A stretch of DNA of 40,620 bases from Escherichia coli (lineage in GTDB: Bacteria; Pseudomonadota; Gammaproteobacteria; Enterobacterales; Enterobacteriaceae). Below, piece after piece: positions 1 to 40,620 of this stretch. A program made the position numbers and the translations under genes. Every line of letters starts with the position of its first letter. Positions within the stretch are counted from its first letter, which is position 1. The notes beneath the pieces were generated by a model. It was not told the DNA's origin, searched no databases, and saw only the letters and a program-made list of their open reading frames with translations. Location of the stretch: the NCBI GenBank assembly GCA_026712415.1, contig GCA_026712415.1_4696.1; one strand, written 5' to 3'.

Positions 1-104
1 AGACGTGCACTGATGGTGAGCGCAAAGAGTTCACCTATTATAAGAAAGATGTAGCGGGTCGCATTGAGATTGCACGTAAGGTTGCAGACAATACGACTCA
101 CTAA
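1..104 (+). CDS. 3' fragment of the 185-aa membrane/coiled-coil protein (duplicate of 40478-40581 from contig wrap-around)
   Basis: Positions 1-143 are identical to 40478-40620; same reading frame and TAA stop (102-104) as ORF 40024-40581. Confidence 0.6.
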   Translation, partial: TCTDGERKEFTYYKKDVAGRIEIARKVADNTTH

Positions 105-111
105 TGGGAGA
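89..111 (+). promoter_or_regulatory. T7-type phage RNAP promoter (phi1.1B-like), overlaps stop codon of upstream ORF
   Basis: CAATACGACTCACTAATGGGAGA, 21/23 match to the T7 consensus, +1 G at 106. Confidence 0.8.
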
Positions 112-122
112 CACTGAAAGTT

Positions 123-160
123 AAACTCAAGGTCATCACATTTGGTGGCCTTCATGATTA
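123..160 (+). promoter_or_regulatory. RNase III processing site (T7 R1.1-like hairpin)
   Basis: AAACTCAAGGTCA...TGGCCTTCATGATT motif, same architecture as T7 R sites. Confidence 0.6.
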
Positions 161-193
161 ACTGTCATTAACTACACAGAAGGAAATAACATT

Positions 194-343
194 ATGCGTA
201 CCAACTTTGAACCAACCACTAAGCGCAACAACGTAAGCAATGAACACGGTGCTGAATGGCAGGAACGTAAAGACCGCATGAAGAAACGCCACAAGACACA
301 ACGTGGCAACGCTGAGAAACGTAACTGGAAGGAGGCACTCTAA
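194..343 (+). CDS. gp1.1-like small basic protein (49 aa)
   Basis: ATG 194 after GGAAAT; basic 49-aa product MRTNFEPTTKRNN... at the position of T7 gene 1.1; stop overlaps next start (TAATG). Confidence 0.55.
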   Translation: MRTNFEPTTKRNNVSNEHGAEWQERKDRMKKRHKTQRGNAEKRNWKEAL

Positions 344-615
344 TGGGTCGCTTATACAGTGGTAACTTAATAGCATATAAAGACGCTATCGAACGACTTA
401 AAGAAGACCACGATGCAAATGTGGTCGTTGAGACTTATCGCTATGAGGACTTCGCACAGCGTCGGATGGTAGCCGGAGAGACACTTCGAGTGACCTTGCG
501 GAATGGCTTAATGCTGACCGCTAAGTGTTTCGAACAGTCAGACGAAGACGTTCGCTGTAATGCACAGACTGAATGGCTCCGTAAGGTTCACAGTGACCTG
601 AAGCACTGGAAGTAA
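343..615 (+). CDS. gp1.2 (host dGTPase inhibitor family)
   Basis: N-terminus MGRLYSGNL matches recalled T7 gp1.2; correct position and size (90 aa). Confidence 0.8.
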   Translation: MGRLYSGNLIAYKDAIERLKEDHDANVVVETYRYEDFAQRRMVAGETLRVTLRNGLMLTAKCFEQSDEDVRCNAQTEWLRKVHSDLKHWK

Positions 616-30106: not shown

Positions 30107-30313
30107 ATGTTGTCTTTAGATTTTAACAACGAGGTAGTGAAGGCTGCACCGATTGTAGGGACAGGCGTAGCCGATGGTGCTGCCCGTCTGTTCTTCGGCC
30201 TGTCACTCAACGAGTGGTTCTATGTAGCCGCAATTGCCTACACAGTGGCTCAAATTGGTGCCAAGGTAGTCGATGTGATTATCAAATGGAAGAAGGAGGG
30301 CAAAGATGTCTAA
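30107..30313 (+). CDS. holin, class II (gene 17.5)
   Basis: MLSLDFNNEVVKAAPIVGTGVAD...NEWFYVAAIAYTV matches recalled T7 gp17.5. Confidence 0.93.
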   Translation: MLSLDFNNEVVKAAPIVGTGVADGAARLFFGLSLNEWFYVAAIAYTVAQIGAKVVDVIIKWKKEGKDV

Positions 30314-30673: not shown

Positions 30674-31117
30674 ATGCTCAAGAATTTAAAGAGCTACGCC
30701 ATAATCGCTGCGTTTGCCTTGGGTATTACCCTTGCGTATAACCACGGATATGACAAAGCTAACACTAAATGGGAACAGGAGGTGCACAATGAGTACGTTA
30801 AGAAAGTTAAGGCGACTGAGGATAAACAGATTGCTATCAATGAAGTCTCACGACAATACCAAGAAGACCTTGCGGCGCTGGAAGGCAGCACTGATAGGGT
30901 CATTAATGATTTGCGTAACGATGGTAAGCGCTTGCGCGTCAAACTATCAGCCACCTCACGAGAACTCCAAGCTAACGGTGGATGCCTCGTTGATGGTCGA
31001 GCCGAACTTGACGAAGAGTTTAGTAAGCGTCTTATCGGAGTAACTCAAAGAGGGGATGCGTGGATTAAGGCGCTCCAAAATACAATAACTGAAATGCAAT
31101 CTAAGAAGGAGAAATAA
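30674..31117 (+). CDS. i-spanin (Rz-like, gene 18.5)
   Basis: N-terminal TM segment, then KWEQEVHNEYVKKV...YQEDLAALEGSTDRVINDLRNDGKRLRV matching recalled T7 gp18.5. Confidence 0.9.
   Translation: MLKNLKSYAIIAAFALGITLAYNHGYDKANTKWEQEVHNEYVKKVKATEDKQIAINEVSRQYQEDLAALEGSTDRVINDLRNDGKRLRVKLSATSRELQANGGCLVDGRAELDEEFSKRLIGVTQRGDAWIKALQNTITEMQSKKEK
30789..31043 (+). CDS. o-spanin (Rz1-like, gene 18.7) embedded in +1 frame of gene 18.5
   Basis: MSTLRKLRRLR...WKAALIGSLMICVTMVSACAS...SLMVEPNLT matches recalled T7 gp18.7, with a lipobox-like Cys. Confidence 0.75.
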   Translation: MSTLRKLRRLRINRLLSMKSHDNTKKTLRRWKAALIGSLMICVTMVSACASNYQPPHENSKLTVDASLMVEPNLTKSLVSVLSE

Positions 31118-39941: not shown

Positions 39942-39964
39942 TAATACGACTCACTATTGGGAGC
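39942..39964 (+). promoter_or_regulatory. T7-type promoter (phi1.1A-like) with transcript 5' UUCG hairpin
   Basis: TAATACGACTCACTATTGGGAGC; +1 G at 39959 begins the hairpin GGGAGCC-UUCG-GGCUUCC (39959-39976). Confidence 0.85.
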
Positions 39965-40023
39965 CTTCGGGCTTCCTAAACTTTAAGATACTTTAAGTTC
40001 TAACTTTAAGAGGAAACACAATC

Positions 40024-40581
40024 ATGTTTACTTTAATCACTTCAGTAGGCGCTCTCGTATCAACCATTCTTGCAGCAACATACTATAATCGTTCAAAGGT
40101 ATTTCTCACTAAGCTAATCAAAGAAGAGAAGAACTCTCATGCACTCAAAGAGAGACTTGAAGATGGTTGGCGAGAGAAGCAGGAACTAGCTGGTCGAATC
40201 CGTACCTTAGAGTTCGAACAACAATATGACATGTCGAACCAACGAGAACTCATCGAGCGTCTACGCGCTGAGGCAGTGGAGTACCGCAAGGAACTTAAAG
40301 AGGCAAAGAGTACCATCCGTGAGTACACTCACAGTGACATCACGTCTATCAAGTTTACTGCTCACATACCGGATGCTGGCTGGAAGCGCACTGAGTTCAA
40401 GCTGGGTCTTGGCTCATGTGGTAAGCAAGTCACTTGCCTACATTGGGTTGAACAAGCCGACCGCTATCTGCTGACAAAGACGTGCACTGATGGTGAGCGC
40501 AAAGAGTTCACCTATTATAAGAAAGATGTAGCGGGTCGCATTGAGATTGCACGTAAGGTTGCAGACAATACGACTCACTAA
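40024..40581 (+). CDS. hypothetical membrane-anchored coiled-coil protein (185 aa)
   Basis: GAGGAAA RBS; N-terminal TM helix, heptad-rich central segment, Cys-containing C-terminal domain; stop codon lies inside promoter 40566-40588. Confidence 0.7.
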   Translation: MFTLITSVGALVSTILAATYYNRSKVFLTKLIKEEKNSHALKERLEDGWREKQELAGRIRTLEFEQQYDMSNQRELIERLRAEAVEYRKELKEAKSTIREYTHSDITSIKFTAHIPDAGWKRTEFKLGLGSCGKQVTCLHWVEQADRYLLTKTCTDGERKEFTYYKKDVAGRIEIARKVADNTTH

Positions 40582-40620
40582 TGGGAGACACTGAAAGTTA
40601 AACTCAAGGTCATCACATTT
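40478..40620 (+). repeat. contig wrap-around overlap (identical to 1-143)
   Basis: Exact 143-bp identity with the window start; the gene order is continuous across it. Confidence 0.9.
40566..40588 (+). promoter_or_regulatory. T7-type promoter (same element as 89-111 through contig wrap-around)
   Basis: CAATACGACTCACTAATGGGAGA. Confidence 0.8.

Follow-up and report, generated by a model that had tools for sequence, protein, structure and literature searches.

Gene 1.05 of a Berlinvirus-type T7-like phage encodes a predicted membrane-anchored, stalked small β-barrel protein of a family found in many T7-like phages

The locus described here lies at the end of a 40,620-nucleotide contig (the window, by which we mean the whole stretch of DNA that was analysed) and centres on a 185-aa open reading frame (ORF) with an ATG start and a stop codon. 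The ORF is bracketed by two T7-type promoters and is followed by genes 1.1 and 1.2, then promoter phi1.3 and the ligase gene (Table 1). An earlier note, made from the letters alone, had placed an ORF of this extent here, and the program-made ORF list contains it exactly as described. The two bracketing promoters are among eight sites returned by a T7-promoter consensus scan of the window, against 0 expected from 100 shuffles. A Shine-Dalgarno sequence, GAGG, is found at 40010-40013, 10 nt 5' of the ORF start, and the region's GC minimum (0.30) falls at 39970-40029.

Upstream of the ORF, the transcript from phi1.05 would open with a hairpin that is conserved at the equivalent position in the phages Berlin, T3, K11 and BSP161. 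The leader that follows aligns with the stretch annotated in T3 as the 'primary origin of DNA replication', which also extends into the start of T3 gene 1.05. By this homology of position the leader is probably the primary replication origin, and the origin probably sits upstream of the ORF and overlaps its start rather than having been displaced by it. The design of the leader, in which a promoter leads into a G+C hairpin at the transcript 5' end and then into two to five ACTTTAAG repeats, is common to Berlinvirus, T3 and K11; Berlin has five copies of the repeat and the window three.

At its other end the ORF runs into phi1.1. Its last 16 nt overlap the promoter and read (ga)C AAT ACG ACT CAC TAA, or D-N-T-T-H-stop; the (D)NTTH tail and TAA stop are the translation of AATACGACTCACTAA, which bears out the idea that the downstream promoter itself encodes the final codons. 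The same overlap between phi1.1 and the 1.05 stop is annotated in BA14, Kvp1, T3 and K11, and an -NTTH tail is common to homologs whose phi1.1 is a T7-type promoter. One family member, P0022, has a TATAGGGAGAC promoter in place of TAATGGGAGA, and its ORF continues without a stop as NTTHYRETHSLS (NTTHYRET). Because this replacement removes the stop, the TAAT promoter variant doubles as a stop codon. Further downstream, the phi1.1 leader hairpin is similar in sequence to what lies between phi1.1A and phi1.1B in T7, and T3 annotates R1.1 here.

Table 1. Features of the gene 1.05 locus, in the order in which they are read across the contig ends
Feature	Coordinates	Strand	Evidence and remarks
phi1.05 promoter	39942..39964	+	TAATACGACTCACTATTGGGAGC, +1 at 39959; consensus scan; same position annotated phi1.05 in BA14, Kvp1, T3, K11
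5' transcript hairpin GGGAGCC-UUCG-GGCUUCC, start of phi1.05 transcript	39959..39976	+	RNA fold: 7 bp + UUCG loop
AT-rich leader with Shine-Dalgarno sequence	39977..40023	+	Three ACTTTAAG repeats: 39980-39987, 39990-39997, 40003-40010
Gene 1.05, full ORF, 'gp1.05 fusion protein' type	40024..40581	+	ORF list, PF25755, orthologs, dN/dS
aa 1-21, N-terminal membrane anchor, predicted N-out/C-in	40024..40086	+	Hydropathy, Hessa sum, flanking charges
aa 22-103, charged helical stalk (coiled coil or single-helix spacer)	40087..40332	+	AlphaFold2, heptads, composition
aa 106-177, gp1.05 domain, predicted six-strand small β-barrel	40339..40554	+	PF25755, AlphaFold2 strands, invariant residues
aa 178-185 and stop, disordered tail	40555..40581	+	pLDDT <50 at residues 182-185
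phi1.1 promoter	40566..40588	+	CAATACGACTCACTAATGGGAGA; consensus scan; copy at window 89-111 from assembly overlap
RNase III-type (R1.1-like) hairpin, phi1.1 leader	115..167	+	RNA fold, 10-bp core stem
Gene 1.1	194-343	+	ORF list; after R1.1-like hairpin
Gene 1.2	343-615	+	ORF list; then promoter phi1.3 and ligase gene

The window begins and ends with the same sequence, positions 1-143 being an exact 143-bp duplicate of 40478-40620. These identical ends indicate a circularised, circularly permuted assembly of a normally linear T7-like genome, in which the 1.05 locus continues at the window start. The window is a lytic-phage contig within an 'Escherichia coli' WGS assembly (locus_tag LI081_22345) and is mislabelled as bacterial.

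The phage is T7-like and of Berlinvirus type, and the ORF is the 'fusion' form of its gene 1.05. Pfam PF25755 (Phage_T3_1_05) matches aa 106-176 at E 1.4e-27; the score of 95.9 bits exceeds the curated gathering score of 27, and the match covers profile positions 2-72 of 73. T3 gene 1.05 matches aa 106-174 by tblastn at 45.7% identity. A 721-bp region is 95-98% identical in the Berlinvirus-type phages vB_Eco_D226, CarlSpitteler, 285P, BA14 and Kvp1, and annotated gp1.05 orthologs are 92-99% identical to the ORF product, with 96-99% protein identity for BA14, 285P and Kvp1 and 98.9% for CarlSpitteler (Bas68 of the BASEL collection). BA14 labels its ortholog gene 1.05, a 'fusion protein with gene 1.05', and places it between promoters phi1.05 and phi1.1; the 285P annotation is gp1.05; that of Kvp1 records a similarity to the C-terminus of T3 gene 1.05; and K11 carries a syntenic 'gp1.05 fusion protein' at 35% identity. 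Gene order likewise matches the annotated BA14, Kvp1, T3 and K11 loci (gene 1 / phi1.05 / 1.05 / phi1.1 / 1.1 / 1.2 / ligase). With the profile, the T3 match, these annotations and synteny in agreement, the earlier note's tentative assignment to a T3-group gene 1.05 proves correct. The exact 185-aa sequence is in NCBI as MCY4709370.1 / WP_268100785.1, a hypothetical protein of 'Escherichia coli'.

Gene 1.05 is thus already known: its annotation goes back to the BA14, K11 and Kvp1 genomes, its domain has a Pfam entry, and it is functionally uncharacterised. Homology to a characterised protein, which the note had said would overturn its view, did not emerge; the homologs have names and no characterised function. 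PHROGs 8103, 6440, 6379 and 9238 also match the ORF, every one of them labelled 'unknown function'. Our literature search found no functional study of 'gene 1.05' or 'gp1.05', terms that occur in genome-annotation tables only, and neither an accessory-gene screen nor a phage JSS1 paper mentions gene 1.05.

Patterns of substitution argue that the ORF is a real gene under purifying selection. Compared by the Nei-Gojobori method with BA14, 285P, Kvp1, nasanit and PYPS50, its stalk and head have dN/dS values of 0.04-0.13, and the anchor behaves similarly wherever substitutions suffice. Such values point to an ORF that is translated and constrained, which excludes a spurious one.

The protein very probably has a three-part architecture, consisting of an anchor, a charged stalk of ~80 residues and a conserved 70-residue small β-barrel. 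AlphaFold2, supplied with a 24-sequence alignment, modelled the whole protein at pLDDT 88 as one helix (residues 2-102, pLDDT 87-96), six strands between residues 106 and 177 (106-115, 119-126, 135-143, 147-154, 159-165 and 169-177) and a disordered tail; a head-only model had the same six strands at pLDDT 81. The layout proposed from the letters alone, a transmembrane (TM) helix, a heptad-rich segment and a Cys-containing C-terminal domain, is borne out by hydropathy, by heptad shuffles and by this predicted β domain, whose cysteines fall at positions 132, 138 and 154.

Residues 1-19 have a Kyte-Doolittle value of 1.79, and a crude position-independent Hessa dG sum for the anchor is +0.94, more favourable than the values obtained in this way for the window's spanin (5.0) and holin (5.3) segments; within the family the anchor's hydrophobicity is only moderate, in 67th place out of 81. 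In the stalk, heptad periodicity across aa 25-103 places hydrophobic residues at 68% of a/d positions in one register (shuffle p about 0.002-0.004) and is strongest at aa 72-106. The stalk is also 49% E/K/R/D/Q and has a polar core alongside this significant heptad signal. A coiled coil is plausible, and so charged a segment could alternatively be a stiff monomeric single alpha-helix. Pfam matches to HIP1 and UPF0242 were below threshold and were dismissed as coiled-coil noise.

The head is the conserved part of the protein. Its motifs comprise an F-K-L-G-x-G-(P/S)-C-G-K loop, then Q, D-G, K-x-F-x-Y and a G-R-I/V-E strand. Across 61 diverse heads, G128, C132, F162, G171 and R172 are invariant, and all five are kept in the window's protein; F125, L127, G130, G133, V136, L139, Q152, D156, K160 and Y164 are nearly invariant. 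One close relative, the cluster representative P0001 (185 aa, Logan/ENA), combines G130D with C132R, which removes from its GxGxCGK loop the Cys that is invariant elsewhere; decay of the allele or an error in sequencing may lie behind this.

The gp1.05 barrel is without a solved or characterised relative in PDB sequence and profile searches and in Foldseek against BFVD. A profile of the 61 diverse heads found no match in PDB (best E 0.67), and Foldseek against BFVD returned uncharacterised T7-like phage proteins only, from Pectobacterium, Salmonella, Klebsiella, Pseudomonas, Ralstonia, Aeromonas and Delftia phages. A PDB sequence search with the whole protein yielded antibody VH chains only (E 0.1-2, aa 137-184). 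This immunoglobulin VH likeness (40432-40575, best E 0.099) was judged a chance match. It is a sub-significant resemblance to VH framework 2-3, LHWVEQ...TYYKKDVAGRIEIARKVADNT against MHWVRQ..., that fills the whole PDB match list.

Scanning all 1.84 billion representatives with HMMER recovered 184 clusters at E ≤ 0.001, and we classified the layouts of 175 family sequences, namely 174 database proteins and the window's ORF. A TM segment with a long stalk and head, the 'fusion protein' subtype to which the window's gp1.05 belongs, accounts for 71 of the 175; a TM segment with a short linker and head for 14; a helical extension without a TM segment and with a head for 16; and the head alone, as in T3, for 74. 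T3 gp1.05 (CAC86265.1) is homologous to the C-terminal 70 residues of the window's protein. Its gene occupies the same locus between phi1.05 and phi1.1, where it directly follows the origin and the RNA polymerase gene, and its stop overlaps phi1.1. At 90 aa, however, it consists of the barrel and a 17-residue N-terminal extension, and unlike the window's protein has neither a TM segment nor a stalk. The gp1.05 'fusion proteins' of BA14, 285P and Kvp1 (Berlinvirus) and of K11/KP32 (Przondovirus) are the same gene with the same three-part architecture. Within Berlinvirus the differences between the window's gp1.05 and those of BA14, 285P and Kvp1 are essentially allelic, with a private Q152K in the window's copy, whereas the stalk and anchor of K11 cannot be aligned with the window's and are alike in length and character. 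The same holds across the family: stalk sequences are essentially unalignable between genera, yet the stalks keep a conserved length (median 84 aa, IQR 73-87, n=68). Atypically long members contain no additional Pfam domain.

Predicted topology places the stalk and barrel in the cytoplasm, beneath an anchor oriented N-out/C-in. Two arguments lead to this prediction. First, all 85 TM-bearing members have a bias of K/R towards the C-terminal side of the hydrophobic segment, with a mean of 3.5 in the 15 residues after it and of 0.02 before it, which under the positive-inside rule gives N-out/C-in and a cytoplasmic head; the window's gp1.05 has no K/R ahead of its anchor and has R23, K25, K30 and K33 behind it. 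Second, half of the family (90 sequences, of which 74 are the bare domain and 16 have a helical extension) is without a TM segment or signal peptide, which implies a head that functions in the cytoplasm. The window supplies a topology control in its i-spanin (30674-31117), where the bias is reversed and K3 and K6 precede the TM segment; i-spanins are N-in/C-out in T7 and lambda.

The earlier note had been reminded of superinfection-exclusion or envelope-associated factors, that is, of a periplasmic coiled coil and head that would act in exclusion or on the envelope in the manner of Rz-, Imm- or Sie-like proteins. The N-terminal TM segment, coiled coil and small C-terminal domain are indeed superficially like i-spanins and some exclusion proteins, and the head does contain cysteines. 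Yet the charge bias runs the other way throughout the family, gp1.05 lacks the N-terminal K/R of signal peptides and type II anchors, 90 family sequences have neither a TM segment nor a signal peptide, and a single invariant Cys allows no conserved disulfide pair. The phage also has its own spanin and holin genes elsewhere, and searches against Pfam, PHROGs, PADLOC (0 defence families) and NCBIfam (no match) gave no homology to exclusion, defence or anti-defence families. The comparison with lambda Rz and T7 gp18.5 extends to a small phage protein with an N-terminal TM segment followed by a long coiled-coil-like helix; it fails at the predicted topology, at the early locus in place of a lysis cassette, and at the missing embedded or adjacent o-spanin. 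We consider an envelope-facing role decidedly unlikely. The window does have an 18.5/18.7 pair of its own: within the i-spanin gene (18.5-like, 147 aa) is an embedded +1-frame ORF, 30714-31043, that ends in a lipobox-like ...MVSAC ASN sequence (18.7-like o-spanin), and a holin-like 68-aa ORF lies at 30107-30313.

We also considered whether members without a TM segment reach the membrane through a cationic amphipathic helix (T3-like MINIKTFFKNIFKL, MFNFIKNIF...). This idea was rejected as a family-wide feature: the hydrophobic moment is not above shuffles (0.40-0.44 in the T3-like case, p about 0.2), and 50 of the 90 such members have <12 residues before strand 1.

A cytoplasmic, membrane-tethered head would also suit a nucleic-acid tether, in which an Sm/WYL-like barrel binds phage DNA or RNA and the anchor fixes replication or genome entry to the inner membrane; possible ligands would be the adjacent primary origin, the entering genome or early transcripts. 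The gene follows immediately on the leader that is alignable with the primary origin annotated in T3, and the best fold-class neighbours of the head include the RNA/ssDNA binders Hfq, Sm-like proteins and WYL. Scores against Sm/SH3-like small β-barrels (Hfq, Gemin6/7, SspB, WYL) are far below homology level, with no signal in sequence searches. The net charge of the head centres on zero across the family, which mildly disfavours a generic nucleic-acid binder. On balance we regard such a tether as unlikely.

Comparison of related genomes points to gene 1.05 as a dispensable cassette that is carried or missing among related phages. The earlier note had stated that T7 has only promoters in the corresponding interval, and neither T7 nor Yersinia phage Berlin, a member of the same genus as the window's phage, has a coding sequence here; Berlin has 113 bp only between gene 1 and gene 1.1. 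Aligned with the window, Berlin retains the same promoter, hairpin, ACTTTAAG-repeat leader and ribosome-binding site, joined straight to the gene 1.1 start codon. We therefore rejected a promoter-to-promoter deletion in Berlin, as the junction instead links the 1.05 leader and ribosome-binding site to the start codon of gene 1.1. This junction suggests that the 1.05 ORF, phi1.1 and the R1.1 leader behave as a cassette, and the absence of the gene from Berlin and T7 suggests that the cassette is dispensable.

The two parts of the protein appear to differ in history. Relative to 285P and nasanit, dS is 0.04-0.12 in the N-half and 0.53-0.61 in the C-half; relative to PYPS50 the order is reversed, with 0.73-0.82 in the N-half and 0.23 in the C-half, and relative to BSP161 the N-half is saturated while the C-half stands at 0.28. 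This discordance argues for separate histories of the anchor/stalk and head modules and for recombination near the domain boundary. A tblastn search found the anchor/stalk module in 24 phage records only, all of them at the RNA polymerase-adjacent 1.05 locus, and on that ground we discarded the idea that the module is shared with other heads. The distant members P0125 (after RNA polymerase and before ligase), P0106 (before a gene 1.1 homolog) and P0138 (before endonuclease I) are placed in keeping with the family as a whole, which occurs only in early/DNA-metabolism regions of T7-like phages that infect many different hosts.

The window's gp1.05 has one private feature. Position 152 is K (AAG, 40477-40479), where Q is found in 60/60 diverse heads, 23/23 close homologs and 12/12 cluster mates, and a sister protein from an E. 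coli assembly differs from the window's gp1.05 by K152Q only. The variant base, 40477, directly precedes the 143-bp terminal overlap, at the contig break. Possible explanations of K152 are a polymorphism within the sample, an escape variant and an artefact of assembly.

This substitution at an otherwise invariant position, together with the fact that Berlin and T7 do without the gene and that a promoter dictates its last codons, might suggest a vestigial or non-functional ORF, held open by chance or by constraint on overlapping promoter and origin DNA. Low dN/dS along the whole length speaks against this, as do the conserved motif shared by the 184 representative clusters, the confident fold prediction and an architecture kept despite near-complete turnover of stalk sequence; we judge such an origin highly improbable.

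Our overall explanation, offered tentatively and with a probability of about 0.45, is that gp1.05 is an early host-takeover or counter-defence adaptor whose cytoplasmic head is held below the inner membrane. By analogy with T7 and T3, and given a position ahead of ligase, transcription from phi1.05 plus early read-through by host RNA polymerase would result in early synthesis. The barrel would be a putative binding head for a host (or phage) macromolecule, and the stalk would dimerise or stiffen it and set its distance from the membrane, at ~12 nm for ~84 residues of 0.15 nm each. That stalk length is kept while sequence diverges is what suggests a spacer. So positioned, the head might capture, sequester or block a membrane-proximal target, and the anchor/stalk and head modules would recombine independently. 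The role would then be that of a host-takeover or counter-defence accessory, rather than one in replication, morphogenesis or lysis.

The predicted arrangement recalls bitopic tethers of the ZipA type, which have an N-out/C-in anchor, a long linker and a cytoplasmic globular binding domain. The likeness lies in the predicted topology and in the logic of the layout, which runs from a short N-terminus outside the cytoplasm through a single TM segment and a long spacer to a small cytoplasmic binding head; there is no sequence or fold relationship, and the ZipA linker is disordered whereas the spacer here is a heptad-bearing helix.

A bolder version of the adaptor reading can be put forward, in which the head is a counter-defence or defence-triggering module. 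Its repeated and independent tethering to the inner membrane, through a stalk of conserved length, would reflect a need to reach a membrane-proximal host machine at a fixed depth, and Q152K would be a host-driven escape variant segregating in the E. coli culture from which the contig came. Candidate targets would be the site of DNA entry or an anti-phage sensor or effector embedded in the membrane. We regard this version as quite unlikely.

The sequence feature in itself adds nothing new; its interest lies in function and in the family-wide pattern of a predicted cytoplasmic head, repeated anchoring and conserved stalk length. Hundreds of T7-like phages, with Escherichia, Klebsiella, Salmonella, Yersinia, Pectobacterium and Pseudomonas among their hosts, have the gp1.05 barrel, encoded at the earliest phage-transcribed position by a gene that has been gained or lost between sister phages and whose product has been membrane-anchored many times. 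The adaptor reading offers a testable frame, with a predicted cytoplasmic head, a stalk of fixed length and an apparently dispensable cassette for which phage Berlin is a natural null. If a role in counter-defence or host takeover proves true, gene 1.05 would matter for the prediction of host range in therapeutic Klebsiella and E. coli podophages.
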